A stretch of 64,000 nucleotides of DNA from NCBI GenBank assembly GCA_947630055.1, contig CANRGA010000001.1, positions 10,195 through 74,194 of the forward strand, in the 5' to 3' direction. How positions within the stretch are numbered: the stretch's first letter is position 1; each line of letters begins with the position of its first letter. This DNA comes from an uncultured Bacilli bacterium. GTDB lineage: Bacteria > Bacillota_I > Bacilli_A > RF39 > UBA660. A program made the translations under genes and the position numbers. Shown here in pieces: positions 9,126 through 61,484 of the stretch. The notes under the pieces are model-generated. The model did not search any database and was not told the DNA's origin. It saw nothing but the letters and a program-made list of their open reading frames with translations.

Positions 9126-9143
9126 AAAGGGAGGTGCATAATT

Positions 9144-12079: not shown

Positions 12080-12089
12080 GTGATATAAA

Positions 12090-13620: not shown

Positions 13621-13800
13621 GAATTAAGGTGGTCTCATTATTTAAAATTAATAAAGATAGATAATGAAATTAAAAGAAGACAAAAATTTCATTAAAGATC
13701 CATATGTATTAGAATTTTTAGATATAAAAGAAAAATACTGGATAATTTTGCTATATTGTGGTATTATATGAAACAATTGATTTTGAAGGGGTGTTTTGTT

Positions 13801-16800: not shown

Positions 16801-19800
16801 TCAAAAGCTTTAATGACTTGTCATGAAGTAACTTTAAAGGGTTATACTTCATCTGGTGAAAAAGAACTTAAAGTTAGTGCCATCATTTTAAATAATGGTA
16901 AAGTTATAACTTTAGATAAAGAAGTAACTATTGAAGTATTAAAAGATATACCAAAAATAACTGATTATAAATATTCTATTAATGATAATAGTATTAAAAT
17001 TACTTTAGCTAATAAAGATAGTGATTCATCTTTAGATGGTGATTTACAAGTTAAAGTTACTGATGATACAGGGAAAGAACTTTATAATAGTAAATATCAA
17101 GAGACAATTGAGTTTAAAAAGAATAAAGATGCTTTAAGATATTATATTTCTGTTATAGGTAGTTATGATAGAGATATTGATAAACAAGAAGATAGTGAAA
17201 ACTATAATAAAGATATTAAATTATTAGATGAAACTATTTCTCTAGATAAAAATAATATTGAATTAAAAGATATTACTTATATAACCTTATATAAAGAAGA
17301 AAATGATAAAATATTAGAGATTAGAGAAATAACTAAAGAAGAATTAGAACAAAATATTGAAAAATATTTTGTCGAAGTTAATATGGAAAATATGCCTTCT
17401 GTTTATGCTAAACTTAAAAAAGTTACTATTGAAGATAATCATTTAATGCTAATTTTAGATTATGAATATGTAACTAAAGAAGAAAGTAAATCTAAAGAAA
17501 TCAAAGTTGATTATGGGGCTATAATTAATGGTAAAGCAAAAAATGAAACTAATCCATTAAATGAATTTAATATCTTAAAAGAAAGAATTAAAAATAATGA
17601 ACATATCATTTTAACTCATGATTATGATTTAAAAGATATTGAAGTTACTACAAGTTATTATTTTGAAAACTTTAGTGGTTCAATTGATGGTAATGGTCAT
17701 AAAATAACTAATTTAAGTAAACAATTATTTAATGAACTTAGTAATGCGGAAATTAAAAATTTAATAGTAGAAAATGCTAATATAAGTGGTGCTGTTCGTG
17801 GTATTTTAGCCGATAAAGGTACAGATGTAGTAATTAATAATGTTCATTTATATAATGGTAATATTAAAGCTAATCTTGTTACTAATGGAACTGGTATTAT
17901 GTTTGGTGAAACAAGAAATAGTATAGAAATATCAAATTCATCAATTGTAAATAGTTCAGTTAGTGGTGGCAAAAGAACTGGTGGCTTTATTGGTCAAGCT
18001 TATAATAAAACAACGATTACTAATAGTTATATCAATGATAGTAGTGTAACTGGTAATAATGACGCTATTGGTGGCATTATTGGCGAAGTAAGTAGTGCTA
18101 ATAATGTTTCTATGACTAATTGTTATAGTAAAGTTACTATGGATGGTGGTGCTGGTAATGCTAAAGCTGGTATTTTAGGCTATACTAATAGTAGCGGTGC
18201 AACTAAATTAATTAATAGTTTAAGTATGTCTCAAGGAAATAGTGGTACGAGAGTATATGGTAATGGTATCTCTGCTACTAATGTCTATGAGTTAAAAGAA
18301 TCTACTATGAGATCGCAAGCTGGTGGCCAAATTAAAGAAATAACTGGTAATGATATTAATAAAGAATTCTTTATTAATTCATTAAATTGGGATGAAGAAG
18401 TGTGGAATTTAGATAATGTATCAGCTGATGTACCTCCTATTTTAAAAGGCGAAAAATTTGAGCCTGTGAAAAGCCCAATAGAAGCTGAAGATGGTTATGA
18501 TCCAAATAAAAGAATACTTTATAATAACTTAATGAAATTAATGCCTTTCTATGATAGTGAAAAAATAGTTAGAACTGGTATGCATATTACTGATAATAAT
18601 TTACTTAATAAAGAAATTCAACATATTGTGCCAATTGATAATAAAGGAAGTATTGTTACATATTTAACAAGTGATAATTTAAAGAAAATAAGTAAGATAA
18701 AAGTAGTATATAAAACGAAAGAAAAAGTTACTTATGATGTAAAATTTGATAATACTTATGATATGGTAGCAAGTTATCGTATACCTGATTTAAATATCGA
18801 TTATACTTATAACCATTATATTATTGATGCTAACTCTCAAGTAGTAAATAATATAACTAATTATTTAAAAGATTTAAGTTATACAAATAATTTAGATACT
18901 TTAACTGCTACTAAAGATAGTAGAATATTAAGAGATTTCTATAATGATGTTACTAGTAAAGAATTAAAAGAATTTACTTTAAAATATTTATCTAATAGTA
19001 ATTATACTAATACCACTAACAATGATAGTATTAATAGTCATTTGGAAAGTGAAATTAAAAAAGATAAAAAAATTGAAAAAGTATTATATATGTATAATTA
19101 CTTTAGAAGATTCTATGATGTTGAAATAGATGGTATGAAATTATATGATTTTATGCTATTTAACATGAATGGTTTTGATGAATCATTAACAAGCCAAATG
19201 ATAGCCCGTATTTATTTACAAGATGGTAATAACTTTAACACTGGTTCAACTGGTACTAAATATCGTGATTTACTAGGGGGTTATACTAAACTTAATACTA
19301 TTGCCAAATTCATCGAATATATGGTAACTGAATTTAGTAATGATAATATGAATGATTGGGTAAGGAAAGAATTTGCAGGTTACTTAGTAGAAATTCCAGT
19401 TAAAGGTCATGAAAAAGACATTCAATATACTTTATGGGATCACTTTAGTAATGAAGATGCTGTTTATAATAATCCACATAGAGCATATGATATGATGTTA
19501 CCAATTTTAACATTGCCAAAGAATGCAGCTTATATAATTTCTACGCCAGTTCAATTTATCATCGGGGCGCAAAGAAGTTATATTGAAGATCCAGAAGATC
19601 CTACTTCTCAAAGTATTTTCCAAAGAAGAGTTAAAAGCTACGCTAAGAGAATGGAAACTTATTTTGATACAGCTTATAAAATTTTAGGCGATGCAAAATA
19701 CTTTAATGATATTCATACTTTCCAACTTGATAAAAGATTTGCTTATGATGAAAATGGCGCAATGGTATATCAACAAGCCTATGTTACAGAGGAGCCATTC

Positions 19801-21353: not shown

Positions 21354-22313
21354 ATGAAAGGCAAAATTATGACAGAAGAAAAAATATACAACGAAATAGT
21401 TGAGTTAATTGAAGAAAGAGAAGTAAAAAAGTTTGTTAGAGAATTTAAAGAAAATTCAGAAACATTAAAAACTAATTGGGAGATAGGTAGATTACTAGTT
21501 AATGCTCAAGGTGGAGAAGCTAGAGCAAAATATGGTGAAAATCTAATTAAGAAATGGGGCGAAAAATTATCTTTAGAATATGGTAAGAATTATAATAAAA
21601 GAAATCTTATGTATTATAGACAATTTTACTTAACATTTCAAAATGTGAACACAGTGTGTTCACAATTTAGTTGGTCAATATGTAGATGCTTATTATCAAT
21701 AAAAAATGAGAATGAGAGAAACTATTATATAAATCAAGTAATACTTAATAATTTATCTGTTAGAGAGTTAAGAAATGAAATAAAAAGTAAAGCCTTTGAT
21801 AGATTATCTTATGCAGATAAAAATAACATTAAGTTAATAACAGAGAATAATAATTCAATAACATTAAGTGATATGATAAAAGATCCGATAATTATTAAAA
21901 CTGATAAAGATACAACTAATTTAACTGAACAAAAATTACATGAAATATTAATTGAGTTAGTTGAAAATCATTATATGGAATTAGGAGCAGGTTTTGCTTT
22001 AATAGGTCATGAATATAAATGCAAAATAGATAATAGAACTTATAAAATAGATTTATTATTCTTTAATTATAAAATAAATGCCTTTGTTGTAGTAGAAGTG
22101 AAGATAAAAGAATATAATCCAAAAGATAGAGGGCAAATAGAATTATATATGGATTATGTTGATAAAAATATAAAAGAAAATTATCATAATAAAACAGAAG
22201 GTATATTAGTAGTTAGAGAAAAGAATAAACTAGTTACTAAATATATTTCTAATAATAATTTATATATTACTACTTATTTATTAGAAAATAAAAAAGTACA
22301 AAATGGCAAATAA
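21354..22313 (+). CDS. DUF1016/YhcG-like PD-(D/E)xK nuclease family protein (intact, 319 aa)
   Basis: ELGAGFALIGHEYKCKIDNRTYKIDLLFFNYKINAFVVVEVKIKE core. N-domain homologous to copies at 89..2044. Confidence 0.75.
   Translation: MKGKIMTEEKIYNEIVELIEEREVKKFVREFKENSETLKTNWEIGRLLVNAQGGEARAKYGENLIKKWGEKLSLEYGKNYNKRNLMYYRQFYLTFQNVNTVCSQFSWSICRCLLSIKNENERNYYINQVILNNLSVRELRNEIKSKAFDRLSYADKNNIKLITENNNSITLSDMIKDPIIIKTDKDTTNLTEQKLHEILIELVENHYMELGAGFALIGHEYKCKIDNRTYKIDLLFFNYKINAFVVVEVKIKEYNPKDRGQIELYMDYVDKNIKENYHNKTEGILVVREKNKLVTKYISNNNLYITTYLLENKKVQNGK
21644..21664. repeat. perfect 10-bp inverted repeat, 1-nt spacer (TGTGAACACA g TGTGTTCACA) at the homologous position of the plus-strand DUF1016 copy
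   Basis: Read directly. Encodes NVNTVCSQFSW. Extended arms are imperfect (one bulged A). Confidence 0.9.
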
Positions 22314-29205: not shown

Positions 29206-29740
29206 TCCTAAATTTACAAGCACTTGGTTGCCAATTAGGCAAATAATGAATGGAATGATTCAACTTGATGACGGTACTTATGTAACAGGAGTTAAAATAC
29301 ACCCTAAAAATATATTTATTATGGGTTCACAAGCGCAAGATAATATGATTTATAGTTTACGAAATTTCTATAATACAATAGATTATGAATTCTGGCTTAT
29401 TATTGCGGATCGTCCAGTTGATATTAATTTATATTTAGCAGAATTACAAAAGTTATATAATAATTCTTCTAGTAATGAAGTAAGAAAATTGATTTTGCAA
29501 GATATTAATAAAGCTAATCAATTTATGAGTATTGAATATAATGTTGTTGATACTGAATATTATTTAATATTCCAAGAGAAAAAATTAGAAATTTTACAAA
29601 AAAAATTACATAATATGATAAGTGGACTTGCAAATTGTGGATTACAATCAAGTCAAACAAGTAATGCTGACTTAAGAATTATTTTAGATAATCTTCTTAA
29701 TGGCGGCGAAGCAATTAATTTTGGGACGGTGATGAGCTAA
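29177..29740 (+). CDS. soluble N-terminal module of a split VirB4-family protein (separate ORF coupled by TAATG)
   Basis: 187 aa with no TM. Stop TAA overlaps the ATG of 29740 (GCTAATGAGT). 187 + 595 aa equals the size of Gram-positive VirB4 (TcpF/ConE). Confidence 0.35.
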   Translation: MKNSEQAISNPKFTSTWLPIRQIMNGMIQLDDGTYVTGVKIHPKNIFIMGSQAQDNMIYSLRNFYNTIDYEFWLIIADRPVDINLYLAELQKLYNNSSSNEVRKLILQDINKANQFMSIEYNVVDTEYYLIFQEKKLEILQKKLHNMISGLANCGLQSSQTSNADLRIILDNLLNGGEAINFGTVMS

Positions 29741-31527
29741 TGAGTAATGTAAAAAATGCTATAGCACCAAAAGGTATGGAATTTAAACCTACCGAATTTA
29801 GAATTAGTGGTAAATATTCTACTATTATTACTATTGTAACTTTTCCCAAAAATGTTTATGTAGGTTATTTATCAGATATAACTAATATTTCGGGAGTTAA
29901 AGTTGTTGTTAAACATATTCCAATTCAATTCCAAGTATTGCAAAAAATGATTAATAAGGAAATTGCAGATTTAAAGACAAGATATCAATCAGAGCATGAT
30001 CAAACATTACAAGAAAAAATTCGTCAAGATTATGAATCATTAGAGCAATTTATTAGTATGCTTGCTTCAACTGATGCTAGAATATTCGATTTTCAAATGC
30101 ATTTAATGCTTACTGCTGATAGTAAAGAAGAACTTGATAATAAAAGAATGGAAGTTAAAAGTTATTTAAATGCAATGGGTATGGCAGGCGTAGCTTTAAT
30201 GTTTGAACAAGAAAAAGTACTTAAAAGTATTGTGCCAATATTTCCACCTCAAGATATTGAGCAAAGAATTGGTACACCAATACCTTCAATTACTATTGCT
30301 GCTATGTATCCTTTTGTTTTTGATAGTATCAAAGATCCAGGATTATCATGTTTATTTGGCGTAGATTTCTCTGGTGGTGTTGTATTATTTAATCAATTCT
30401 TGTATCAAATAAGAAAAGAAAATAATCGTAATAATGCTAATATTATTTTACTTGGTACATCAGGAAGTGGTAAATCAACGGCTGCTAAACTTTTGCTTCG
30501 AACTCATTTACGTAATGGTTGCAAAGTTGTGGCAATCGATCCTGAAGGCGAACTAGGTGATATGACTGAACTTATGGGTGGAGATTTCTTAGACCTTGGT
30601 AAAGGTGGCCAATTTGGTATGATTAATCCACTTGAAATAGTAATGGATGTTGATGAAGAAGAAATATCTCAAGGCTTAGGATATACTGTTTTAACAAGAA
30701 CTCTTCAACAATTAAAAGCATTTATGAAGTATTATAATCCATCAATTGAAGAAGATGTTTTAACTCTTTTTAGTGAAGTAGTTCAAGATACGTATAAGAG
30801 ATTTAAAATTGATTTTGATACTGATTTTACTAAATTAACAAGAGATGATTATCCAACATTTGATGATGTTTATGCTACTATTCAAGGAAGACTTTTATCT
30901 ATGGTAGATGCAACTCATGAGCGAGATGTTATGGAAAGATTAGAATTAAAGGTACGACCTTTAGTCAAAGAATTAAGATATTACTTTACTGGTAAAACTA
31001 CCATTCAAATTCAAAGTGATTTTATTGTATTTAATATAAAAGAATTAATGAATAGTGATGAAAATATTAAAAATGCTTTATTCTTTAACATATTAAAATT
31101 TGCTTGGGGCTTATGTTTAGAGAAAGATGTTAATACAGTTATGATGGTGGATGAAGCTCATGTACTTCTTGCCACTCATAATGAACTTGGAGCAGAATTT
31201 TTAGCTCAAATTCAAAGACGTAGTCGTAAATATAATACTGGTACGATAATAATTACCCAACAACCAACTGATTTCGCAGCTCCATCTGTTATTCAACATG
31301 GTAAGGCTATTTTTGATAATGCTTCTTATTATCTAGTAATGGGCCTTCGTAAACAAGCGGTTGAAGATTTAGCTCAATTAATTGATTTAAATGAAAGTGA
31401 AAAAGAAGGAATAAAATATTATCCACAAGGCCAAGGATTATTTATCTGTGGTAATAGAAGAATGCGTATTAATGTTGTTGTTACTCAAGAAGAACTAGAT
31501 TCATTTGGTTCTGGTGGTGGCTATTAA
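29740..31527 (+). CDS. VirB4/TcpF/ConE-family T4SS ATPase (C-terminal ATPase module)
   Basis: Walker A ILLGTSGSGKST. Walker B MMVDEAHVLL. IIITQQP motif. Confidence 0.8.
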   Translation: MSNVKNAIAPKGMEFKPTEFRISGKYSTIITIVTFPKNVYVGYLSDITNISGVKVVVKHIPIQFQVLQKMINKEIADLKTRYQSEHDQTLQEKIRQDYESLEQFISMLASTDARIFDFQMHLMLTADSKEELDNKRMEVKSYLNAMGMAGVALMFEQEKVLKSIVPIFPPQDIEQRIGTPIPSITIAAMYPFVFDSIKDPGLSCLFGVDFSGGVVLFNQFLYQIRKENNRNNANIILLGTSGSGKSTAAKLLLRTHLRNGCKVVAIDPEGELGDMTELMGGDFLDLGKGGQFGMINPLEIVMDVDEEEISQGLGYTVLTRTLQQLKAFMKYYNPSIEEDVLTLFSEVVQDTYKRFKIDFDTDFTKLTRDDYPTFDDVYATIQGRLLSMVDATHERDVMERLELKVRPLVKELRYYFTGKTTIQIQSDFIVFNIKELMNSDENIKNALFFNILKFAWGLCLEKDVNTVMMVDEAHVLLATHNELGAEFLAQIQRRSRKYNTGTIIITQQPTDFAAPSVIQHGKAIFDNASYYLVMGLRKQAVEDLAQLIDLNESEKEGIKYYPQGQGLFICGNRRMRINVVVTQEELDSFGSGGGY

Positions 31528-31651: not shown

Positions 31652-34504
31652 ATGGATCCAAATGAAGAATTTGAAGAATTAGAAGATTTAGATGTAAATC
31701 CTGATGCCACTGAAGAAATTATAGATGATGGGGGAGAAGAAACTTTTAGTGATTATCCTGAATCTACTGGAAGTAAAACCGGATACAAAGGAAAAAAATA
31801 TCATGCTGATCGTATAAATGAATTAGATGAAAAAAGCGAACAGTTAAAAGAAAAAGTAGAAACTTTAAAAGATGAAAAAAGTAGAGATTGGAAATTAAAA
31901 GATTCTAATAATAAAGAACCAGTTAAAGCTGATGGTTCTAATACAAGATTAAAAACTCAAAGAGAAAAATTTGGTGATAATGCTAAACTTGCTAGAGCAA
32001 AAGCTCAGGAAAAAATAAATAAAGCTCAAAGAATGAAAGCAAAATTAGATAGAGTTACTGATGTTGCAACTCATCCATTAGAAGCTGCCAAAGAAGCTGC
32101 TGAAGATAAAGCTAAAGATATAGCTAAAAAAACAGGAAAAACAGTTGGAAAAGCAGCCGCTAAAGGTGCAGTTAATGCTGCTAAAGCTACGGGAAGATTA
32201 GTTGCTCAAGGTGGAAAAATGCTTGTTAGTTTATTATCTAATCCTTATGTTTTAGCTGCAGTTGTAGCGGCAGCTTTATTATTTATTATTTTCTTTATGC
32301 TATTTTCTAAAGCATCAGATGGTGACTTAGAACCAGAAGGATATTTTGATACTACATGTGATTTCAATTTAACTTCTGTAACCTATAGCTGTAATGGTAC
32401 TAGTAAAATAATGGGAATAAAAGAATATGTTTTAAGTATTGCTTATGGTGAAATGCAAAAAAATAATTTATCAGAAGCAGCAATTAAAGCATTAATGATA
32501 ATTGCAAAAACAAATGCTCTTGCTAATGGCAACTATGATAGTAGTGGTGATAAGGCTATTAGTATAAGTGGAAGTAATTGTAATGCTGCATATGAAAATG
32601 TTTATGAGACACTAGCTGATGAACAAGAAAATAAGACAAAACAAAAGCAAGTTAAAGTATTAGAAAACTATTATAATGAAATAGCTAATTATTTATTTAT
32701 TTCTGAATCATATAAGAGTGAAATCACTGAATTAGGAAGTGAAGATGCTTTAGAATTTAATGATAATATTATTCAAAAATTAGTTTCAACTAATAAAGAT
32801 GGCTATGAAGAAATACTTCAAGAAATATATGCAGTTGAAGATGGTGAAAGTGATAAAACTATAACAGTAACTAATTCAAATCCATCTATATTTGTAGGTG
32901 ATTCTAGAACAGTTGGTATGAAAAATTCTGTTAGTGAATTAAATGATAATAATACCATTGCAGAAGGTTCAAAAAGATATGATTGGTTTGTTAATACTGC
33001 AATAAATAGCATTAATAGTAAAATAAATAATGGCAATTCTTATAATATTATTAGTTGGATGGGAGTAAATGATATTGCAACTAATGCAAGTAGTGTAGCT
33101 GAAAAATATTTTAATAAGTATAAAGAACTTGCACAAGGTAGTTGGAGTAAACATACTATATATGTTGTAAAGGTAGGCCCAGTTGTTGATTCTAAAACAT
33201 ATTATGTTGATAATGCTCAAGTAAATGAATTTAATGATAGAATGAAAGAATTAATAAATAATGCCAACATTAGTAATTTAAAATATATTGATTTAAGTTA
33301 TTCTATTAATTCATATGATGCTGAGGGATTACATTATGGTCAAAGCGATTATCAAAAAATTTATAATGATATAAAAGCAAAAGTTACTTCAACAAAGACA
33401 CTAAGTAAAGTTAAAGCATTATTTAATAATGCTGAATATTGTACATACTATAGATATAAAAAAGAATGTGAAGCAGGTTGGTGGTGGCCAATTGGTACAG
33501 GTACTCCTCGAGGAAATATTTATCCAGATGAACCAGGCTCATCTTTAATGCAATTATATTCACCATTTTCTTATAGTCGTGATATTGGTAAAGGCGCAAG
33601 AGCACATTTGGGCGTTGATATTGGTGGTGGATTTGATGATATAGTTATTGCATCTAGGTCTGGAACTGTTGTTGCCACTCATAATGGCTGTACTGAATTA
33701 AATAATTTACATAGTACTTGTGGTGGCGGTGGAGGCAACTGGGTTAAAATTGATCATGGCGATGGCACATATTCTATATATATGCATATGAAAAATAATT
33801 CTTTAACAGTGAAAGAAGGAGATAGTGTTAATCAAGGTCAAAAAATAGGTTTAATAAGTTCCACAGGTTCATCAACTGGTGCCCATCTGCATTTTGCTAT
33901 TATAGTGGATGGTAATTATGTTAATGCTCTTGATGGTTATATTAGTGCTGATAATCCACGACCATCTGGTAATTGTGATAATTATACAGCTGATAAATCA
34001 GGTGTATGCAAAGCTTTGAAAGATTTGGGATTTAGTGATAACGCAGTGGCAGGCTTAATGGTTAATATTAAGGCTGAAACTTGGTATTTTGATTTTGATC
34101 CTAATGCCTATGTTGCAAATGATAATGGTGGTCCAAGTATGGGACTTATAATGTGGCATGATGTATTTGCTTGTGCTAATTATGATGTCTGTAGTGCTAA
34201 AAATTCAGGATATACTTGTAATGCAAGTGCTTTAAAATGCTTTTGCCAAGAAAATAATTTGGAATGGAATAGTGTTGCCTGTCAAACTAAATATTTAAAA
34301 AAATATATTGATGATCATGCAAATGTTTATGATTTCGATGCTGCAAAAACAATTTATGATCCTAATGCAAGTGCTCATGATATAGCATCACAATTTTGTA
34401 TAAAATTGGAAAGACCCGCAAATAAATATACAAATTGTCCTCAAAGAGCAAGCAGTTATGCGAGTGATATGTTAAGCTTTGTTAAAAATGGTTGTAAAGA
34501 TTAG
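31652..34504 (+). CDS. multidomain cell-wall hydrolase of the T4SS (VirB1-functional analogue): TM anchor, GDSL/SGNH hydrolase, M23 peptidase, lysozyme-like C-terminal region
   Basis: TM VLAAVVAAALLFIIFFMLF. GDS motif FVGDSRTVGM and GVNDI. M23 motifs HLGVDIGGG and GAHLHFAII. Confidence 0.75.
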   Translation: MDPNEEFEELEDLDVNPDATEEIIDDGGEETFSDYPESTGSKTGYKGKKYHADRINELDEKSEQLKEKVETLKDEKSRDWKLKDSNNKEPVKADGSNTRLKTQREKFGDNAKLARAKAQEKINKAQRMKAKLDRVTDVATHPLEAAKEAAEDKAKDIAKKTGKTVGKAAAKGAVNAAKATGRLVAQGGKMLVSLLSNPYVLAAVVAAALLFIIFFMLFSKASDGDLEPEGYFDTTCDFNLTSVTYSCNGTSKIMGIKEYVLSIAYGEMQKNNLSEAAIKALMIIAKTNALANGNYDSSGDKAISISGSNCNAAYENVYETLADEQENKTKQKQVKVLENYYNEIANYLFISESYKSEITELGSEDALEFNDNIIQKLVSTNKDGYEEILQEIYAVEDGESDKTITVTNSNPSIFVGDSRTVGMKNSVSELNDNNTIAEGSKRYDWFVNTAINSINSKINNGNSYNIISWMGVNDIATNASSVAEKYFNKYKELAQGSWSKHTIYVVKVGPVVDSKTYYVDNAQVNEFNDRMKELINNANISNLKYIDLSYSINSYDAEGLHYGQSDYQKIYNDIKAKVTSTKTLSKVKALFNNAEYCTYYRYKKECEAGWWWPIGTGTPRGNIYPDEPGSSLMQLYSPFSYSRDIGKGARAHLGVDIGGGFDDIVIASRSGTVVATHNGCTELNNLHSTCGGGGGNWVKIDHGDGTYSIYMHMKNNSLTVKEGDSVNQGQKIGLISSTGSSTGAHLHFAIIVDGNYVNALDGYISADNPRPSGNCDNYTADKSGVCKALKDLGFSDNAVAGLMVNIKAETWYFDFDPNAYVANDNGGPSMGLIMWHDVFACANYDVCSAKNSGYTCNASALKCFCQENNLEWNSVACQTKYLKKYIDDHANVYDFDAAKTIYDPNASAHDIASQFCIKLERPANKYTNCPQRASSYASDMLSFVKNGCKD

Positions 34505-36416: not shown

Positions 36417-38636
36417 ATGAAGTTTAAGGTAGAAGCTAAAGACTTTTTCTTATTTGTAGTATATTGTATTATACTTCTTTATTTATGTGCTTTAGCAGTT
36501 TCTAATTTATTTTGCCTACTTAATTATGGTACATTTTATGGACTTCTTCCTTTAAGTGCTTTCTCTTTGCAATATTTACCATTTACTTTAGGATTATTCA
36601 TTGGGGCCTTAATTTTAATATTTACTAGTGTCTCTTCTTATATTTTTAATAAAGATAAAGGTAGTGGCTTTGGTATTAAAGTTAATAAAGAAAAAACTAG
36701 TGATGGTTATGCTAGATGGGCTAAAGATAAGGAGATAAAAACAGCTAATAAAGTTGTTAAAATTAATCCAACTGATAAAGTACTTACAGCTGGTGGAATT
36801 CCTTTAATTAGTAATCCAAAAGAAATATGGGTTGATAATAGTGATTATCATAATTTGGTAATAGGTTCTACTGGTAGTGGTAAAACTGAAAATTTAGTAT
36901 TTCCAATGGTAAATATCTTAGCTAAAAAAGGTGAAAGTATGATTATTACTGATCCTAAAGGTGAGATATATAGTAAAACTGCTAATAACTTAAAAGAACG
37001 TGGATATAAAATTATTGTTTTAAATTTTAGGGAACCAGGAAAAGGTAATGCTTGGAATCCTTTGGATATGCCTTATAAGTATTATAAGGAAGGTAATTAT
37101 GATAAAGCCACTGAACTTCTAGAAGATGTTTCTTTAAATATATTATACGATCCATCTAAAGGAAATGGTGATTCTGAATTCTGGGAAAAAGGATCAGCTG
37201 ATTACTTTTCAGGGTTAGCTATTGGATTATTCCAAGATGCATCGGAAAAAGAAATAAATTTAAATAGTATTAATTATATGAGTACTGTTGGTGAAGAAAG
37301 ATATGCTACTAGTAACTTTATAAAAGAATATTTTAATTTAAAAGGTAAAGAATCAAATGCTTATATGTTTGCTAATACAGTTATTAATGCTCCAAACGAT
37401 ACAAAGGGTGGTTTACTTTCAACATTTAGTCAAAAAATAAGAATGTTTTCTACTAAAGAAAATTTAGCGGAAATGCTTTCTTATAGTGACTTTGATATGC
37501 GTGACATTGGTAAAGGTAAAACTGCTGTATTTATGATTATTCATGATGAGAAAAAGACATATCATACATTGATGACTATTTTTATAAAACAAGTATATGA
37601 AACTCTTATTGATGTAGCGCAAGCTAATGGAGGAAAACTTCAATATCGTACTAATTTTATTTTAGATGAATTTGCTAATATGCCACCTCTTAAAGATGTT
37701 GATAGTATGGTATCAGCAGCAAGAAGTCGTGATATAAGATTTACTTTTATTATTCAAAACTTTGCTCAACTTAATGATGTATATGGTGAAGAAGTAGCAC
37801 AAGTAATTAGAGGTAATTGTGGTAATTTAATTTATTTAATTTCAACAGAACTTAAAGCCTTAGAAGAAATAAGTAAAATGTGTGGTGAAGTTAAATCAAA
37901 AGAAAAGGATAAAACTGCTTCAACTCCATTAGTTACAGTTAGTGATTTACAAAAATTAAAATTAGGTGAAGCAATTATTTTAAGACTTAGAATGAATCCA
38001 TTTAAAACAAAATATGCTCCTAATTTTAAAATAAATTGGGGAGAAGATTATCCACTAGCGACATATCCTACTAGGGAATTTCATCAAGTTGAATTATTTG
38101 ATTTAAAAAAATATGTTACAGAAGAAAAAAGAAAACGTATGATGAATAATACAAATAATGATGCTAATTCAATGATGCAACCAGGTGGAATAAGTCCATT
38201 TGGTATGGGTGGTGGCTTTGGTATGCCAGGTATGCCAGCTGGTAATCCAATGAATTCTTTAAATGGTTCAGCATCAAATCCTTTTGCTGGTGGCTTACAA
38301 AATATGGATATCGATGCTATGATGAAAGATATCGATCGTAAACTTAAAGAACTTGACGAAGAAGAAAAACGTCAAAAAGAAAAATTAAAGATGCAAAATC
38401 AAAAAATTACTAATGATTCACCATTTAAATTATCAGATGATACAGAATTGCCAGAATTAAAAGAAAAAGCATTAAATGAAGAACTTGATAAGGACATAAA
38501 AGAAAAAGAAGAGCCTAAAGATGAAAGTTCAAAAATAGATAAACCAAAAGTTAATATTGATGTTGATAGTGTTATTATGAATGAAAATGTAATAACTGAT
38601 GATGAATTTTTTGACGATTTCTTTGGTGATGAATAA
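36417..38636 (+). CDS. VirD4/TraG/TcpA-family type IV coupling protein
   Basis: N-terminal TMs. Walker A LVIGSTGSGKTE. Walker B FILDEFANM. Gly/Met/Pro-rich then acidic C-terminal tail. Confidence 0.8.
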   Translation: MKFKVEAKDFFLFVVYCIILLYLCALAVSNLFCLLNYGTFYGLLPLSAFSLQYLPFTLGLFIGALILIFTSVSSYIFNKDKGSGFGIKVNKEKTSDGYARWAKDKEIKTANKVVKINPTDKVLTAGGIPLISNPKEIWVDNSDYHNLVIGSTGSGKTENLVFPMVNILAKKGESMIITDPKGEIYSKTANNLKERGYKIIVLNFREPGKGNAWNPLDMPYKYYKEGNYDKATELLEDVSLNILYDPSKGNGDSEFWEKGSADYFSGLAIGLFQDASEKEINLNSINYMSTVGEERYATSNFIKEYFNLKGKESNAYMFANTVINAPNDTKGGLLSTFSQKIRMFSTKENLAEMLSYSDFDMRDIGKGKTAVFMIIHDEKKTYHTLMTIFIKQVYETLIDVAQANGGKLQYRTNFILDEFANMPPLKDVDSMVSAARSRDIRFTFIIQNFAQLNDVYGEEVAQVIRGNCGNLIYLISTELKALEEISKMCGEVKSKEKDKTASTPLVTVSDLQKLKLGEAIILRLRMNPFKTKYAPNFKINWGEDYPLATYPTREFHQVELFDLKKYVTEEKRKRMMNNTNNDANSMMQPGGISPFGMGGGFGMPGMPAGNPMNSLNGSASNPFAGGLQNMDIDAMMKDIDRKLKELDEEEKRQKEKLKMQNQKITNDSPFKLSDDTELPELKEKALNEELDKDIKEKEEPKDESSKIDKPKVNIDVDSVIMNENVITDDEFFDDFFGDE

Positions 38637-52442: not shown

Positions 52443-52571
52443 TTAAATCACCTACAAACTAGATAATTATAGCATTACAAAATGGTAAAATCAAATAATT
52501 TTATAAAAATTAACAATTTTATATTGTCCGAATTAAAATAGTGTGTTAATATTAAAATAAGGTGAATAATA

Positions 52572-53279
52572 GTGAAGTCAGATAAAAAAAGAAAAAATTT
52601 AAAACGTGATACACAAATTATTATATTATCTGTTCTTATTTTAACAATAATTTCGTTGAATTTTTCTTATTCAGCCTTTTTTTCAATAGATTCAAGATCG
52701 ACTGTTCAAGAAATATCAACTGGAACTTTAAATGTTACTGCAACTCCTACTTCGATGTGGAAAGAAGATTTATATCCAACAGACGAAGCTTTGCCTACTG
52801 ATGAAAAATCAACGTTATCTTCATCTGAAAAGAATTTTGCGGCATTAACTGTTACAAATAATGGAACAATTGATGCAAATTATGTTATTACTTTAAGCTA
52901 TGACACATCAGATTTAACAGAAGATCAAATTGCTAATAATTTAGCATCTTTTGATAATTTAATTATTGGTATTTATGATACTGATAAAAGTTCATGGGTA
53001 AATTTAAATCCAGATGGAGATAGTAACGCTATATATAATATGAAAATTACTCAATTTGCTGAAAGTAGTAAGGGTGTTTATCCTATTTTGAAACATGAAA
53101 TATTAAAGGCAAATATTACTGAATCAGAAACTAAACCTACTGTTCAAAATTTGCGTATTTATGTATGGCTTGCTGATACAACACCAGAATCTGAGATAGG
53201 AAAATTAGTTCATTTAAAAATAAATGTAAGAAGCACTCCATTAAAAGGTCAAAATGACCAAGAAGTTAGTAGAAGTTAG
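52572..53279 (+). CDS. TasA/camelysin (M73)-like matrix protein with SipW-cognate-type signal peptide
   Basis: GTG start after AAGGTG. NFSYSAFFSIDSRSTVQEISTGTLNVTA parallels TasA AAFNDIKSK..ASGTLDLSA. Confidence 0.5.
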   Translation: MKSDKKRKNLKRDTQIIILSVLILTIISLNFSYSAFFSIDSRSTVQEISTGTLNVTATPTSMWKEDLYPTDEALPTDEKSTLSSSEKNFAALTVTNNGTIDANYVITLSYDTSDLTEDQIANNLASFDNLIIGIYDTDKSSWVNLNPDGDSNAIYNMKITQFAESSKGVYPILKHEILKANITESETKPTVQNLRIYVWLADTTPESEIGKLVHLKINVRSTPLKGQNDQEVSRS

Positions 53280-53290
53280 GGGGATAAATT

Positions 53291-55861
53291 ATGTTTGTAC
53301 AAGAAGATGAATTAAAAAAGAAAAAATTAATGGCACTAGTTATTATGATGATAATAATGATTTTGTGCTTAATTCTAATTATCACTACTTTTACACTTGA
53401 ATTTTTTGGTAATGGTTATTTAGGTGGAAGTGGTAAAAATGCATTAAATGTCGATATAGATGGTGATGGTTTACCAGATGTTAATATTACTTATGGGAAA
53501 ATTAAAGACAAAGCAGTTTTTAATATAGATATTGATGGTGATGGTTATCCTGATAAGAATTTTATAAATCAAGATACAAATGGTGATGGCAAATGTGATT
53601 TAAACTGTGATGTTAATGATGATAATCACCCAGATTACAATATAGATTTAGATGGCGATGGAAAACCAGATATTAATATTGATACAAATGATAATGAAAT
53701 GCCAAACTTAAACATTGATACAGATGGCGATGGAAAGCCAGATGTTAATATTGATATAAATGGTGACGAAGAACCAGATATTAATATTGATGATAGTGTT
53801 GATAAAAAGACACCAATCGATACTGACGGTGATGATGAGTCAGATGTTGATGCTGAAACTGATGGAAAACCAGATAAAAATTTACTAAATCAAGATACTG
53901 ACAATGATGGAAAATGCGATTTAAATTGTGATGTTAATAATGATCATTATCCAGATTACAATATAGATATAAATGGCGATGGAAAGCCAGATGTTAATAT
54001 TGATACAAATAATAACAAAAAGCCAGATTTAAATGTTGATACAGATGGTAATGGTGTACCTGATACTAATATTGATTTTGATAAAGATGGCAAATGTGAT
54101 ATAAATTGTGATACTGATGTAGAAAAAAATATGTGGGTTGATACAGACCGTGATAAAGATCCGGATATTGAGGCTGAAACTGATGGAAAGCCAGATAAAA
54201 ATCCAACAAATCAAGATTTAAATAATGATGGAAAATGTGACTTAAATTGTGATGTTAATAAAGATGGTTATCCAGATGTTAATGTCGATATAGATGGCGA
54301 TGGAAAACCAGATGTTAATATTGACACAAATGATAACCAAAAGCCAGATTTAAATATTGATACGGATGGTAATGGTGTACCTGATACTAATATTGATATA
54401 GATAAAGATGGCAAATGTGATGTAAATTGCGATACTAATGTTGAAAAAAATATTGAAATTGATACAAATAGCGATAAAAAGCCAGATGTAGAAGCCGAAA
54501 CAGATGGAAAGCCAGATAGAAATCCAACAAATCAAGATACAAATGGTGATGATAAATGCGATTTAAATTGTGATATAGATAAAGATGGCTATCCAGATAT
54601 TAATATTGATGTTGATGGTGATGGCGATCCAGATTTAAATGTTGATACAAATGGTGATAATAAATGCGATTTAAATTGTGATACAGATAAAGATGGTAAG
54701 TGTGATTTAAATTGTGACACTAATAATGATAAACAATGTGATTTATTCTGTGATACAACTGGTGATGGTAAATGTGATACACATTGTGAGGTAACTTGTC
54801 CAATTAATTGTGATACAGACGGCGATGGTAAATGCGATTTAAATTGTGATACTAATAATAATAAACAATGTGATTTAAATTGTGATACCAATAAAGATGG
54901 TAGATGTGATTACAATTGTGATACAGATAAAGATGGCAAATGTGATGTAAATTGCGATACAGATAAAGATGGTAAGTGTGATTACAATTGTGATAATGAT
55001 AAAGATGGTAGATGCGATTTAAATTGTGATATTAATAAAGATAATAAGTGTGATTACAATTGTGACAATGATAAAGATGGTAAATGCGATTTAAATTGTG
55101 ATAATAACAAAGATGGTAAGTGTGATTTAAATTGCGATACTAATAATGACGATAAATGTGATTTAAATTGTGACACTAACAAAGATGATAAGTGTGATTT
55201 AAATTGTGATACTAATAATGATAATAAATGTGACTTAAATTGTGATAATAACAAAGATGGTGAATGTGATAAGTACTGTGATACCAATAATGATGGTAAG
55301 TGTGATAAATATTGTGATGATGACGATGATAATGTACCGAAAGCTTTATTAACAATGATGAAAGCAAAAGATGTTAATTTAATAGTAACTGCTGATGAAA
55401 TGACAAAAAATGCTGTAGGTCAAAAGAAATATGTAGAAATATCAAGTGCAAAATCTTATTCAACAGTTTCTCTTCGTTCATATGAAGATACAACTTCATG
55501 TAAATATGATGTAACCTTTAAAACAATAAGTAATACATTTACTAATCAATACTTAAATATGAACAATTTAAAACCATTAGGTAATCAATTAATATTAAGA
55601 TTGGAAGGATATCAAGATAATAATAATGTTGCAACGATACATACATATAATATAGATTTAATTAAAATAAAAGATAGTGATTATAAAATTGGTGAAGTTA
55701 CGATTTCTAATGATGCGGCTAGTAAAAATTTAACAGAACAACGATGGGGTATAACCTTATTATTTAGAAACTATAGTAGTTTTAATCAAATAAATAATGC
55801 TGGTAAGAGCGTTCATGGTGAATTGATATTCCAATCTAAAGGTTGTGTTAAAAATAAATAG
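53291..55861 (+). CDS. membrane-anchored repetitive Asp/Asn/Cys-rich protein: about 100-aa DxDxDG repeats followed by about 25 tandem 12-aa CDxNCDxxKDGK repeats (thrombospondin-type-3-like calcium-binding repeats) and a 180-aa C-terminal globular domain
   Basis: TM LMALVIMMIIMILCLILIITTF. Repeats read directly, e.g. CDLNCDTNKDGKCDVNCDTDKDGKCDYNCDNDKDGRCDLNCD. Confidence 0.7.
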   Translation: MFVQEDELKKKKLMALVIMMIIMILCLILIITTFTLEFFGNGYLGGSGKNALNVDIDGDGLPDVNITYGKIKDKAVFNIDIDGDGYPDKNFINQDTNGDGKCDLNCDVNDDNHPDYNIDLDGDGKPDINIDTNDNEMPNLNIDTDGDGKPDVNIDINGDEEPDINIDDSVDKKTPIDTDGDDESDVDAETDGKPDKNLLNQDTDNDGKCDLNCDVNNDHYPDYNIDINGDGKPDVNIDTNNNKKPDLNVDTDGNGVPDTNIDFDKDGKCDINCDTDVEKNMWVDTDRDKDPDIEAETDGKPDKNPTNQDLNNDGKCDLNCDVNKDGYPDVNVDIDGDGKPDVNIDTNDNQKPDLNIDTDGNGVPDTNIDIDKDGKCDVNCDTNVEKNIEIDTNSDKKPDVEAETDGKPDRNPTNQDTNGDDKCDLNCDIDKDGYPDINIDVDGDGDPDLNVDTNGDNKCDLNCDTDKDGKCDLNCDTNNDKQCDLFCDTTGDGKCDTHCEVTCPINCDTDGDGKCDLNCDTNNNKQCDLNCDTNKDGRCDYNCDTDKDGKCDVNCDTDKDGKCDYNCDNDKDGRCDLNCDINKDNKCDYNCDNDKDGKCDLNCDNNKDGKCDLNCDTNNDDKCDLNCDTNKDDKCDLNCDTNNDNKCDLNCDNNKDGECDKYCDTNNDGKCDKYCDDDDDNVPKALLTMMKAKDVNLIVTADEMTKNAVGQKKYVEISSAKSYSTVSLRSYEDTTSCKYDVTFKTISNTFTNQYLNMNNLKPLGNQLILRLEGYQDNNNVATIHTYNIDLIKIKDSDYKIGEVTISNDAASKNLTEQRWGITLLFRNYSSFNQINNAGKSVHGELIFQSKGCVKNK

Positions 55862-55887
55862 AGATGGTTAGTTACCATCTTTTTTTG
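55862..55887 (+). terminator. rho-independent terminator
   Basis: AGATGGT..ACCATCT hairpin followed by TTTTTTT. Confidence 0.6.
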
Positions 55888-55938
55888 TTTATGCTTTTAA
55901 TTAATTCTATTTAATGATAAAATTTAATTGGTGATTTT

Positions 55939-59715: not shown

Positions 59716-61061
59716 TTTGTTTGCGTAATATAATTATATTATCCAGGAGGCTATGGTTTATGTTAGTTGATCGTGCATACAAATTTAGAATGTATCCAAG
59801 TGTAAAACAAGAAGAATTAATAAATAAAACTATTGGTTGTTCAAGACTTGTTTATAATATAATGTTAAGTAAGAAGAAAGATAATTCTAAACTTACTAGT
59901 TTTGATATGATAAAAGAAATACCAGAGTTATATAATGAATACCCATTTTTAAAAGAAGTAGATAGTTGTTCATTAAGATGTGCAATATTTGATTTAGAAA
60001 ATGGTTTAAATAAATATTATAAAAAACAAGGAGGATATCCAAAGTTTAAGAAAAAAGGAATAAAAGATAGTTATAGAACAAATTATATAAAAAATACATA
60101 TAAAGATAAAAAATATGAAAATATAAAAATAGATTTAAAAAATAAAATAATAACATTACCAAAATTAAAAGAAGTAAAAATAAAAGGATATCGTCATTTA
60201 GAATATATAAAGGGAAGAATAATAAATGCTACTATTGAACATATTGCTAATAAATATTATGTATCAATATGTGTAGAAGAAGAAATGCCTAATGTTAAAA
60301 CTAATACTGCTTCAGTTATTGGAATAGATATGGGGATAAAGAGTTTAATAACCACAAGTGAAGGAATAAGTTATGGAAATCCAAATTACTTAAAAAAATA
60401 TGAAAGAAAGATAAAAGGATTACAAAAAGGATTATCAAGAAAAATAAAAGGAAGTAACAATTATAATAAATATAAAATAAAACTTCAAGAAACATATAGA
60501 AAGTTACAAAATGCAAGAAGAAAAACTAACGAAGAAATAGTAAGTAGAATAATTAAAGATAATGATATAATAGTAACTGAAGATTTAAACATAAATAGTA
60601 TGATAAAAGAAGCCAAAAAATCTCTAAGAAGAAATATAATTAATTCCACAATGAGTGACATAATAAGAAGACTCAAATATAAATGTAAGTGGTTGAATAA
60701 AAAATTAATACAAGTAAATAGATATTATGCCAGTAGTCAAATATGTAGTAGTTGTGGAAATAAAAGCAAAAAAATGAAGGATATAAAAATAAGAGAATAT
60801 AAATGTCCAAAATGTGGAATAGAGATAGAAAGAGATATAAATGCAAGTATAAATATAATGTATGAAGGAATAATAAGTTACTATAAAGAGAGATATCAAA
60901 ATTAAATAAATAAATAATAAAACAATAAACAAGTACGGCAGCGACTGTCGGAAATATGGTCTGTGGAGGAGTAAAATCCTAAGAAGCAGAAAAGATAAGC
61001 CATGAGGCTTATCAAAGCAAATGAAAATAAATGTTAGTTTATTGAATTTGCTTTTGTTCTA
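59716..61061 (+). mobile_element. IS200/IS605-family insertion sequence, TnpB-only (IS1341-like group)
   Basis: Ends defined by comparison with the MITE copy at 45515..45727. Contains the tnpB ORF. Confidence 0.8.
59760..60905 (+). CDS. tnpB: TnpB (OrfB) RNA-guided nuclease/transposase accessory protein
   Basis: ATG 59760 after CCAGGAGG. N-terminus MLVDRAYKFRMYP. RuvC-I IGIDMGIKS. RuvC-II IVTEDLNI. Zn ribbon CSSCGNKSKK..CPKCGIEIERDINASINI. Confidence 0.9.
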   Translation: MLVDRAYKFRMYPSVKQEELINKTIGCSRLVYNIMLSKKKDNSKLTSFDMIKEIPELYNEYPFLKEVDSCSLRCAIFDLENGLNKYYKKQGGYPKFKKKGIKDSYRTNYIKNTYKDKKYENIKIDLKNKIITLPKLKEVKIKGYRHLEYIKGRIINATIEHIANKYYVSICVEEEMPNVKTNTASVIGIDMGIKSLITTSEGISYGNPNYLKKYERKIKGLQKGLSRKIKGSNNYNKYKIKLQETYRKLQNARRKTNEEIVSRIIKDNDIIVTEDLNINSMIKEAKKSLRRNIINSTMSDIIRRLKYKCKWLNKKLIQVNRYYASSQICSSCGNKSKKMKDIKIREYKCPKCGIEIERDINASINIMYEGIISYYKERYQN

Positions 61062-61079: not shown

Positions 61080-61484
61080 TTGCTTAAAAATTATTTTGAT
61101 AATACAAGACCAATGTATTTAGCATTAAAAAATAATGAAATGTTATGGCTAGTACCTTTAAGTTCTAAAATAAGTAAATATCAAAAAATCATAAATCAAA
61201 AGATAAAAAAATATGGTAAATGTAAGAGTATAATGATAAGAAAAATTGGTGGTAAATATCAGGCGGTGTTACTACAAAATGCTTTTCCTATTATAGAAAA
61301 ATATATAGATCATATACATATTCAAAAGAATATGCCAACAGTAGCTGTTAATACAGTCAAAAAAGAAATTAAAAGTAATTTAAAAGAATTATTAATATTA
61401 AAAAGTAAGGGATTTGATTTATTTTTTACTAATATTGATTATATTGAAAAAATAATGATGCAAGAATTAATTTGTAAAAAATGA
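61080..61484 (+). CDS. ToxN/AbiQ-family type III toxin (endoribonuclease)-like protein, 5' end uncertain or disrupted
   Basis: LWLVPLSSK versus ToxN YLAPLTSPK. AVLLQNAFPIIEKYIDHIHIQKNMPT versus ToxN LINLKFMIPIIEAEVSLLDLGNMPNT. ToxN sequence recalled from memory. Track start is a TTG. Confidence 0.5.
   Translation: MLKNYFDNTRPMYLALKNNEMLWLVPLSSKISKYQKIINQKIKKYGKCKSIMIRKIGGKYQAVLLQNAFPIIEKYIDHIHIQKNMPTVAVNTVKKEIKSNLKELLILKSKGFDLFFTNIDYIEKIMMQELICKK

Follow-up and report, generated by a model that had tools for sequence, protein, structure and literature searches.

The question raised by two adjacent genes in the chromosome of an uncultured Bacilli bacterium is whether they encode two separate secreted proteins or the parts of one surface structure. 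The window, that is, the whole stretch of 64,000 nucleotides (nt) that was analyzed, is chromosomal DNA of low GC content, about 26%. On its forward strand, gene A (52572..53279, with a GTG start) encodes a protein of 235 amino acids (aa), and gene B (53291..55861, 2571 nt) encodes a protein of 856 aa. A first-pass annotation placed both open reading frames (ORFs) correctly and recognized B as a repeat protein, which it took for a separate matrix or ion-binding protein. The evidence described here indicates instead that B is probably a component of the same system as A, because its C-terminal domain (CTD) belongs to a second family of proteins with SipW-type signals. The favored reading, with a probability of roughly 55%, is that A and B make up a surface-fiber module of the TasA-superfamily type, in which A would be a fiber or cap subunit and B its stalk-borne partner.

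From their sequence features, the two genes form one bicistronic operon that is separate from the gene downstream. They are read as a unit because the gap between them is 11 nt, each has its own ribosome-binding site (AAGGTG 5' of the GTG start of gene A and GGGGGA 5' of gene B), a promoter-like site lies upstream and a terminator-like hairpin follows B. The pair is flanked on one side by a divergent typA/bipA gene and on the other by a gene for a ZIP-family transporter. The promoter-like site (TTAACA, 18 nt, TAAAAT; 52510..52539, forward strand) lies in the divergent intergenic region between typA and gene A and was found in a consensus scan with 10 of 12 matches. Because the region holds no more promoter-like sites than shuffled sequence would lead one to expect, this site is a candidate only. 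The intrinsic-terminator-like hairpin with its T-run (55860..55892, forward strand) has a 9-bp stem with three G-C pairs and the tail TTTTGTTTAT. It stands directly 3' of the stop codon of gene B, between the pair and the ZIP gene, and the terminator scan returned three sites of this kind against 0.7 expected.

The arrangement is conserved among related genomes. B orthologues were taken from 15 further loci besides the window, and in 14 of the 16 species-level genome loci an A orthologue is directly followed by a B orthologue in the same slot between typA and the ZIP gene, with the 11-nt coupling conserved. The nearest relatives of the locus are found in metagenome-assembled genomes labeled either 'uncultured Bacilli bacterium', from rabbit, goat and human gut, or 'uncultured Mycoplasma sp.' Two loci, L036 and L037, have stalk-less members of the CTD family of gene B downstream of an A-like gene. 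The constant partner of A is therefore the CTD and not the stalk.

The N-terminus of gene A carries its only hydrophobic segment. Residues 1-34 (52572..52673, forward strand) were assigned as a signal peptide from the sequence, the invariant alignment columns and an alignment with SipW-type signals. They begin with a basic n-region and a hydrophobic core of 14 residues, after which comes the sequence NFSYSAFFSIDSRSTVQEISTGTLNVTA, and the c-region has an invariant S-Y-S. Specifically, S32, Y33, S34, A35, F36 and F37, together with G51, L53 and V55, are invariant across 20 gene A homologues (alignment A1), for which the mean column identity over the whole protein is 52%. In hhalign, the signal region aligns with the canonical ATFAYF SipW-type signals that the stalk-less CTD proteins carry (probability 83%, E = 8.5e-6), with SYSAFF placed on TFAYF. 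By analogy with TasA, in which TWA is followed by AF at the cleavage site, gene A is predicted to be cut between SYS and AFF.

The residues that would follow such a cut are the most conserved stretch of the family. Residues 35-55 (AFFSIDSRSTVQEISTGTLNV; 52674..52736, forward strand) have predicted local distance difference test (pLDDT) values below 50 and are unstructured in the monomer model. Based on their conservation and their alignment to TasA AFNDIKSKDATFASGTLDL, they are a candidate N-terminal donor strand. In TasA itself, the corresponding stretch acts as donor strand and enters the next subunit of the fiber (PMC9674648).

The predicted fold of gene A points to TasA as well. The AlphaFold2 model has a mean pLDDT of 72.8, with values of 80-92 in a beta-sandwich core and below 50 at residues 22-49. 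In a Foldseek search of the PDB, the best match, and the sole one at E<=1e-3, was the TasA fiber solved by cryo-electron microscopy (8aur_A; E = 8e-4, probability 0.98). Weaker matches included other donor-strand subunits, namely the PapG and PapK pilin domains with PapD, CS20, the Sulfolobus 0406 thread and CanA. At the level of profiles, hhalign compared a 170-sequence profile of the gene A family with TasA at P = 0.0045. The best stretch placed A-family residues 36-104 on TasA 2-55, with the family pattern FFSxxS..Q.I.TGTL.V...N.G.L falling on FNDIKSKDATFASGTLDL...NNGSL of TasA. For gene A itself, AFFSIDS...TGTLNV...N.G is paired with AFNDIKS...SGTLDL...NNGS, and the mature N-terminus falls on TasA residue 2.

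The model of gene A also contains a long N-terminal helix, which would suit a different protein, one that is never cleaved and is anchored by its N-terminus like the archaeal type IV pilins, with the helix in the membrane or in a filament core. Residues 15-59 do match the archaeal pilins 8tib, 8fjs and 6nav weakly in PDB sequences (E = 0.5-1.4), and one alignment pairs STGTLNV with STGTLKV of a Sulfolobus pilin. However, these matches fall short of significance, and it is the hydrophobic helix that drives them. Moreover, gene A has no class III signal motif (neither a [KR]-G/A cleavage site nor G-F-T-L-x-E), and neither a prepilin peptidase nor a pilus ATPase is encoded in the operon. With its n-h-c order and its small residues at -1 and -3 (S-Y-S), the signal of gene A is built like a type I signal peptide, and the alignment with the TFAYF signals speaks for the SipW type. 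A pilin-like protein is thus a very improbable identity for A, and the TasA-type subunit is retained below.

The A family as a whole carries no annotation. None of 35 homologue clusters has a Pfam domain, and searches of PDB sequences with gene A and with profile A1 gave nothing significant; the profile of 20 homologues fails to retrieve TasA from them. A profile search of 1.84 billion representatives found 333 relatives. In many of these, the A domain of about 210 residues is N-terminal in a larger secreted protein, and the C-terminal partners in these fusions include CarboxypepD_reg, CBM_X2 and DUF6273.

Gene B has a tripartite layout, with one N-terminal hydrophobic segment, a stalk of about 630 residues built from 12-residue repeats and a conserved CTD of about 174 aa, the non-repetitive domain that had previously been put at 180 aa. 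The protein is 21% Asp and 14% Asn and contains 53 Cys. Full-length orthologues range from 512 to 1979 aa across species and share the N-terminus and the CTD; those with 76-78% identity retain an identical layout. Full-length gene B matches no Pfam family, even at E<=1, and in NCBIfam it returns only composition-driven matches to staphylococcal SD-repeat adhesins, with about 100 bits against cut-offs of 999-2500. It has no significant match among PDB sequences, and no solved structure resembles its sequence.

The N-terminal region of gene B (residues 1-35; 53291..53395, forward strand) consists of KKKK and a very hydrophobic segment of 22 residues ending in TTFTLEFF, with a mean Kyte-Doolittle value of 3.51 over 19 residues. 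B orthologues retain [ST]-[FY]-[TVY]-x-E at this segment, and B-like proteins have clear signals at the same position, ATFAYL in L022 and GTYAYLF in L025. As judged from these motifs, residues 1-35 may be either a signal-anchor, in keeping with the membrane anchoring that had been described, or a degenerate SipW-type signal.

The stalk (residues 49-682; 53435..55336, forward strand) contains about 50 units, recognized by their register-12 layout, motif excess and lag-12 periodicity. The consensus is D1-x-[DN]3-x-[DN]5-G6-K7-[P/C]8-D9-x-N11-[I/V/C]12, and the units are interrupted by short irregular linkers. The motif D-x-[DN]-x-[DN]-G occurs 26 times in gene B, compared with 2.35 +/- 1.5 (maximum 9) in 2000 shuffles of the same residues, and self-identity is 0.45 at lag 12 compared with about 0.05 at neighboring lags. 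The repeats are therefore not a product of chance.

Within the stalk, the units are organized at a second level. Tandem Repeats Finder identified 3.5 copies of a higher-order repeat of 321 nt, or 107 aa (53566..54688, forward strand; 80% matches, score 1268), in agreement with the three or four repeats of about 100 aa that had been described. Each copy combines several units of the P type with one or two of the CDLNC type and an irregular linker. An array of 19 tandem two-Cys 12-mers (C-D-L-N-C-D-T-N-K-D-G-K) occupies residues 457-680 (54659..55330, forward strand), as delimited from the protein layout and the Cys spacings of 4 and 8. The same program reported a 36-nt period with 19.4 copies at 54632-55318 (72-78% matches). 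The first-pass annotation had counted about 25 perfect two-Cys 12-mers. The total of 25 CxxxC motifs is right, but only 19 of them are in tandem, with one irregularity of 8 residues in the array, and the remaining six are isolated CDLNC units in the upstream repeats. The 36-nt periodicity also generates spurious antisense ORFs, as had been noted. One lies at 54589..54891 on the reverse strand and has a periodic translation (VSQFKSHL...); further ones, at 54029-54214, 54350-54535 and 55054-55287 on the same strand, arise from reading the reverse complement of the repeat.

DNA this repetitive could in principle be an assembly artifact or a decaying pseudogene, but such an origin has practically no probability here. 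In five independent metagenome assemblies gene B is exactly 2571 nt and 856 aa long, with 13-19 nucleotide differences. These are mostly synonymous in four of the five (2-4 amino-acid changes), and L033 has 19 differences and 6 amino-acid changes. Such identity of length excludes misassembly. Additionally, the DNA copies of the repeat are only 72-80% identical to one another, the reading frame is intact in 15 species, and the grammar of the units is clearly constrained. The comparison of copy number that had been proposed therefore gives a constant length with no variation in repeat number among these five assemblies of the window's species, in contrast to the wide range across species. One further assembly of the same species, of low coverage (L031, assembly ERZ27249167, 985-3637, about 3x) does have gene B split into ORFs of 400 and 485 aa, in a region 82 nt longer. 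The split may stem from misassembly of the repeats, or it may be a true frameshift or a variant in repeat number.

The grammar of the stalk was derived from 387 units in 16 proteins. Units were anchored only on the x-D-x-N-x-D bridge, which fixes D9 and N11, and the unanchored positions were then read. Asp or Asn occupies position 3 in 98-99% and position 5 in 100% of units, and Gly occupies position 6 in 65-70%. The stalk has the linear motif Dx[DN]xDG with a further acidic or amide ligand downstream. This loop is common to EF-hands, integrin 'calcium blades', dockerins and thrombospondin, in which it has near-identical geometry (PMC3123361), and by analogy each loop of the stalk is likely to hold one Ca2+. 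As a separate observation, the same calcium-loop motif is used again in the window. A surface protein of 2472 aa (13756-21174, forward strand), whose C-terminal region matches Peptidase_M26_C, an IgA1-protease-type zinc metalloprotease, with 110 bits, has a sub-threshold dockerin-like pair of DxNxDG loops near residues 254-314.

Positions 8 and 12 of the unit vary together. They are occupied either by Pro (or Ala) with Ile or Val, or by Cys with Cys, and units with both cysteines outnumber those with a single one by 321 to 16. The isolated CDLNC units have no other cysteine within 40-100 residues, so the Cys pair lies within one unit, at i and i+4. On the evidence of these sequences, the Cys unit is a P/I to C/C variant of one universal 12-mer and not a separate repeat. 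We infer a contact between residues 8 and 12 that is hydrophobic in some units and can be exchanged for a disulfide or a shared metal. Stalk cysteines are absent altogether from the B orthologues of L005, L013, L014 and L015, while the total cysteine count in other orthologues reaches 169. The Cys pair is therefore a staple that the stalk can do without rather than its functional core. The description of gene B as a string of Ca-type loops with Cys locks is accurate in that Dx[DN]xDG loops and staple-like paired cysteines are present, but the cysteines are dispensable and missing from some orthologues.

The first-pass annotation had called these repeats thrombospondin-type-3-like. The analogy is sound, since calcium-type loops and nearby cysteines occur in both, but the family assignment is not. 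The best matches of stalk fragments to Pfam all fall below threshold: FG-GAP with 20.3 bits (cut-off 22.1), FG-GAP_3 with 19.8 (26.9), Notch LNR with 14.3 (21.2), TSP_3 with 12.9 at HMM positions 14-24 and TSP3_bac with 11.6 at positions 1-10 (cut-offs 25 for both), as well as EF-hand. Every one of these matches is confined to the 10-12 residues of the DxDxDG loop. In addition, the cysteine spacing differs from that of TSP3, because the stalk cysteines are at unit positions 8 and 12 (C-D-x-N-C) and are replaced by Pro and Ile in most units. Six modeled stalk units had pLDDT values of 30-38. The 12-residue calcium-loop array is covered by no Pfam model or solved structure.

A more ambitious interpretation of the stalk is tentative, and less likely to be right than wrong. 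It holds that the stalk is an undescribed rod of back-to-back Ca loops that takes the place of the donor strand of a TasA-superfamily subunit, turning a fiber subunit into a Ca2+-dependent membrane tether of tunable length that accepts the strand of A. Such a rod may bind one Ca2+ in every 12-residue loop, which would amount to as many as about 150 in a protein, and Pro8/Ile12 may be interchangeable with an i/i+4 Cys staple. If this is true, extracellular calcium would switch the tether between collapsed and extended states and so set the distance of the fiber or cap from the cell.

The abundance of acidic loops and cysteines allows a second function to be considered for B, that of a surface store or buffer of divalent cations, in which the Asp loops would hold Ca2+ and the Cys pairs would hold Zn2+ or soft metals, linked to the downstream ZIP gene. 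The stalk has about 50 acidic loops and 50 cysteines, and the ZIP gene follows the A/B pair in every orthologous locus. However, a terminator lies between B and the ZIP gene, and the four orthologues without stalk cysteines indicate that thiol-metal binding is not a conserved function. Moreover, the two are uncoupled in other genomes. In L025 the ZIP gene is next to an ABC transporter and the cluster of A, B and sipW is elsewhere, and in L022 the ZIP gene occurs without B. The adjacency of ZIP is therefore a matter of backbone synteny. A cation store would also leave the conserved CTD and the pairing with A unexplained, and it is accordingly an improbable function for B.

The CTD (residues 683-856; 55337..55858, forward strand), which was delimited by alignments A2 and A4 and is predicted to be all-beta, provides the link between B and the fiber module. 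It contains a conserved Cys pair (C737 and C852) and the motif FRNYxxxxQxNNAGK, and it has no Pfam or PDB sequence match, including with profiles A2 and A4. Homology extends to the variant CTDs found in L018 and L025 (hhalign E = 4e-5, with no sequence overlap between the alignments). The CTD profile also finds stand-alone, stalk-less proteins immediately 3' of A-like genes, in L036 (E = 1.8e-5) and in L037 (E = 1.9e-9), the latter with four paralogues. These proteins begin with near-canonical SipW-type signals: VGATFAYFTATS, GATFAYFSAQS, AATYAYFAAQ, TATFAYFTAR and GITFAYFFAN. Two of them score 17.0 and 16.9 bits with TIGR04088, just below its cut-off of 19 bits. They share with the CTD of B the conserved Cys pair, Tyr59, Asp109 and the motif N..Q..NAGK. 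A 431-aa protein of L022 is intermediate, with an ATFAYL signal followed by Asp-rich repeats and then the CTD. Pfam scans of the CTD-bearing proteins of L025 and of the stalk-less members found no family. Overall, from its sequence, B looks like a member of a second SipW-signal family into which a Ca-loop array has been inserted between the signal and the domain.

The representation of this family in protein databases is poor. The CTD alone has no homologue in the protein collection and the CTD profile finds only two fragments there, because large repeat proteins are absent from it. Four full-length B-type proteins, those of the window, L001, L002 and L005, are absent from this collection of 15 billion proteins; their genes were called on contigs. 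The absence may mean that highly repetitive acidic proteins were filtered out, and this class of repeat proteins has likely been overlooked systematically in surveys made at the protein level.

A related lineage links both families to a signal peptidase. The locus L025, which was reached through a distant A-family member, encodes in order a B-like protein of 315 aa, a SipW-type peptidase, a short A-family paralogue of 178 aa and an A-family protein of 680 aa. The 315-aa protein has a hydrophobic segment ending in ATFSY, PDYNID/CDLNCD repeats like those of B, and a CTD. The peptidase is a signal peptidase I of the archaeal/ER type (TIGR02228, 103 bits against a cut-off of 51.85), for which SipW is the closest specific model. 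A further B-like protein upstream has GTYAYLF after its hydrophobic segment. By analogy, the cluster has an arrangement of the tapA-sipW-tasA type, the layout that has been described in B. subtilis (PMC9674648). The likeness of gene B to TapA is limited to this operon position, and scans of Pfam and NCBIfam found no homology of gene B to TapA (YqxM).

Two other features of these clusters were noted. Small proteins of 144-178 aa (L022:9447-9881 and L025:7408-7944) have a hydrophobic N-terminal segment ending in SIP(I/V)WN(K/R)L and adjoin A-family genes; the one in L025 matches the A family weakly (E = 1.7e-6). Such proteins may serve as a minor subunit or in a chaperone-like role that has no counterpart in the operon of the window. 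In addition, a gene for an McrB-like AAA protein and a DUF2357 (McrC-like) gene lie between two B-like genes of the sipW cluster (L025:2928-5474), and this insert is probably a restriction system that landed in a surface-protein locus.

A number of results weigh against the fiber module. The Foldseek superposition of gene A on 8aur_A has a template-modeling score of only 0.34 and a high root-mean-square deviation, and the hhalign probability for the A family and TasA is only 7.7%. Gene A has no match at E<=1 to Peptidase_M73 (PF12389) or any other Pfam family, or to any NCBIfam model, including that for TasA (NF046066). TIGR04088 finds nothing in A or B, even in scans restricted to the N-terminal 60 residues, and gives 8.7 bits with a distant member of the A family. 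No signal peptidase I motif occurs in the 64-kb window, which bears out the earlier remark that it contains no sipW, and no SipW-type peptidase lies within 10 kb of the 16 orthologous loci. The N-terminal motif of gene B aligns weakly with the TFAYF signals (E = 0.015), and the residue that would be at -1 (T, V or Y) is poor for cleavage. The AlphaFold2 model of the CTD, from an alignment of three rows, has a pLDDT of 36, and comparison of the CTD profile with the A family and with TasA gave nothing significant; the CTD is for this reason not claimed to be TasA-like. Finally, gene A is kept without an adjacent B in L022.

These results bear differently on the parts of the first-pass annotation. 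It had named a lack of TSP3 or M73 similarity as grounds for its own rejection, and on those grounds the family assignments fail. What survives of the TasA- or camelysin-like description of A is the likeness in predicted fold, and what survives of the SipW-cognate signal is its alignment with the TFAYF signals and its invariant motif. The conclusion drawn here is that the unannotated gene A is, at the superfamily level, either a distant relative of TasA or its structural analogue, and that it does not belong to the camelysin family.

Some of the same evidence would fit a self-sufficient adhesin. Under this explanation, B would be a 'periscope'-type adhesin carried on a Ca2+-stiffened stalk of variable length, and A a secreted protein that is only co-transcribed with it, such as a small adhesin or a protein associated with the spore or envelope, with no exchange of strands. 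The stalk varies fourfold in length across species and the terminal domains are retained, as in proteins of the periscope type. The lack of detectable likeness of the CTD to A or TasA is in keeping with this, as are the occurrence of A without an adjacent B in L039 as well as in L022 and the fusion of A-family domains to the unrelated modules mentioned above. Against it, the pairing of A-like genes with the CTD family persists in L036 and L037 where there is no stalk, the A and CTD families share the same unusual class of signal, both are found beside sipW in L025, and the tight coupling of A and B is conserved. The adhesin must be taken seriously but is judged distinctly unlikely, and the fiber module remains the favored interpretation.

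The mechanism that would follow from the fiber module can be outlined. A would be exported by Sec and probably cut between SYS and AFF by a SipW-type peptidase encoded elsewhere in the genome, leaving a jelly-roll domain with a free and highly conserved N-terminal strand. In B, tandem 12-residue loops of the form Dx[DN]xDG-xx-D would be inserted between a degenerate signal, which has drifted to TTFTLEFF, and the CTD. Some 50 loops would bind Ca2+ and form a stiff spacer of variable length, in some units of which the C8-C12 pair would replace the Pro8-Ile12 contact. B would stay tethered to the membrane by its N-terminus and present the CTD tens of nanometers from the cell. More speculatively, the strand of A might insert into the CTD of B, into further A subunits, or into both, by donor-strand complementation, and A might polymerize in this way. 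The outcome would be a tethered cap or fiber for matrix formation or adhesion. B could also act as the cell-proximal terminator or anchor of the assembly, because the stalk occupies the place of the mature N-terminus of the stand-alone members.

If the reading is right, donor-strand systems of the TasA type extend to uncultured, low-GC gut Bacilli from rabbit, goat and human samples, about whose surface structures almost nothing is known. Regardless of function, two protein families without annotation, the A family and the CTD family, have been identified. The covariation of Pro/Ile with Cys/Cys is a ready structural restraint, and the 12-mer could be useful as a designable Ca2+-responsive spacer.

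The surroundings of the operon show signs of mobile elements. An IS605-family TnpB, with OrfB_IS605 and a Cas12f1-like TNB domain, is encoded at 59721-60905 on the forward strand with no adjacent TnpA, and in L001 gene B is immediately followed by an insertion comprising a Y1 transposase and another ORF. The neighborhood is therefore prone to IS200/IS605 activity. An ORF at 61080-61484 was considered as ToxN-like and rejected, as it has no Pfam match and no upstream RNA repeats. On the other side of the window, a large insert at 2267-39000 looks like an integrated conjugative element (for example 8034-10837, 29740-31527, 31652-34504 and 36417-38636). It encodes a VirB4/TraG-type ATPase, a type IV coupling protein and a cell-wall hydrolase with M23 and lysozyme domains, as well as a Tad-like T2SSE ATPase, TadB/C-like membrane proteins and small pilin-like ORFs (11567-12551). 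L002 and L005 have the same chromosomal backbone genes without this insert. Three paralogous genes for DUF1016/YhcG PDDEXK nucleases, including a truncated one, are found at and within the mobile-element region (89-1267 and 1457-2044 on the reverse strand, 21354-22313 on the forward strand) and may be remnants of repeated insertions.

In comparison with known systems, the locus is closest to tapA-sipW-tasA of B. subtilis (TasA 5OF1, 8AUR). The predicted fold of A has the TasA fiber as its best PDB match, and AFF..TGTLNV at the mature N-terminus of gene A parallels AFND..SGTLDL of TasA. In both cases a second, accessory protein is co-transcribed, and in L025 the order is accessory protein, sipW, subunit. 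TapA starts TasA fibers by donating its N-terminal strand (PMC10151520). Unlike the B. subtilis system, A is not a member of the family at the level of hidden Markov models, the A/B operon contains no sipW, and the host belongs to a lineage of uncultured gut Bacilli. B is also unrelated to TapA, being 3-8 times larger, with a Ca-loop stalk and a conserved CTD of its own.

Loci of the TasA superfamily commonly encode, besides a major subunit, minor or tip subunits, anchors for the membrane or wall and a signal peptidase I of their own, and some of the systems depend on Ca2+ (bioRxiv 10.64898/2026.01.04.697558). BsaA, BsaB and SipW of C. perfringens and the archaeal AbpA, AbpX, Tafi, 0406 threads and CanA are such modular loci with a signal peptidase I and a donor-strand logic, and the BsaA oligomers are held at the membrane and not linked to the wall (PMC11580942). 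Calcium is involved in the assembly of CanA and of members of the AbpX clade (bioRxiv 10.64898/2026.01.04.697558). In these systems, however, Ca2+ is located at the interface of donor strand and groove and not in a repeat stalk as proposed for B, and the anchors are SLH, LPXTG or transmembrane proteins without Dx[DN]xDG arrays. By sequence, A and the CTD of B cannot be recognized as members of any described clade of the superfamily.

The stalk has counterparts of a different kind. TSP3 (PF02412), bacterial TSP3 (PF18884) and Notch LNR are likewise strings of DxDxDG Ca2+ loops with little secondary structure and nearby Cys locks, and D-G-x-C-D-x-x-C-[DN] of the stalk resembles the LNR and TSP3 cores. 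In contrast, the stalk has a strict 12-residue unit instead of one of 13/23 or about 36 residues, and its cysteines are i/i+4, within one unit, and dispensable. The likeness is thus most probably due to convergence. The loops of integrin/FG-GAP 'calcium blades' and of dockerins and EF-hands have the same ligand spacing, with Asp/Asn at 1, 3 and 5, Gly at 6 and Asp at 9 (PMC3123361). Unlike the loops of propeller blades or of helix-loop-helix proteins, those of the stalk recur every 12 residues with a three-residue x-N-x bridge.

Variable-length stalks are also a feature of other surface proteins of Gram-positive bacteria, namely the 'periscope' proteins and the SD-repeat MSCRAMMs, and Ca2+-dependent repeat rods are formed by the RTX beta-rolls and MpIBP. 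As in B, an acidic repetitive region of periscope and SD-repeat proteins projects a terminal domain, and its length is set by the number of repeats. The unit and motif of B differ from theirs, and its anchor would be N-terminal and not LPXTG. Overall, a TasA-superfamily fiber module with an accessory or anchor protein is known already, as is an acidic, calcium-binding repeat stalk. What is new is their combination, together with two unannotated families and a minimal 12-residue calcium-loop array with Pro/Ile-Cys/Cys interchange, in a little-known gut lineage.

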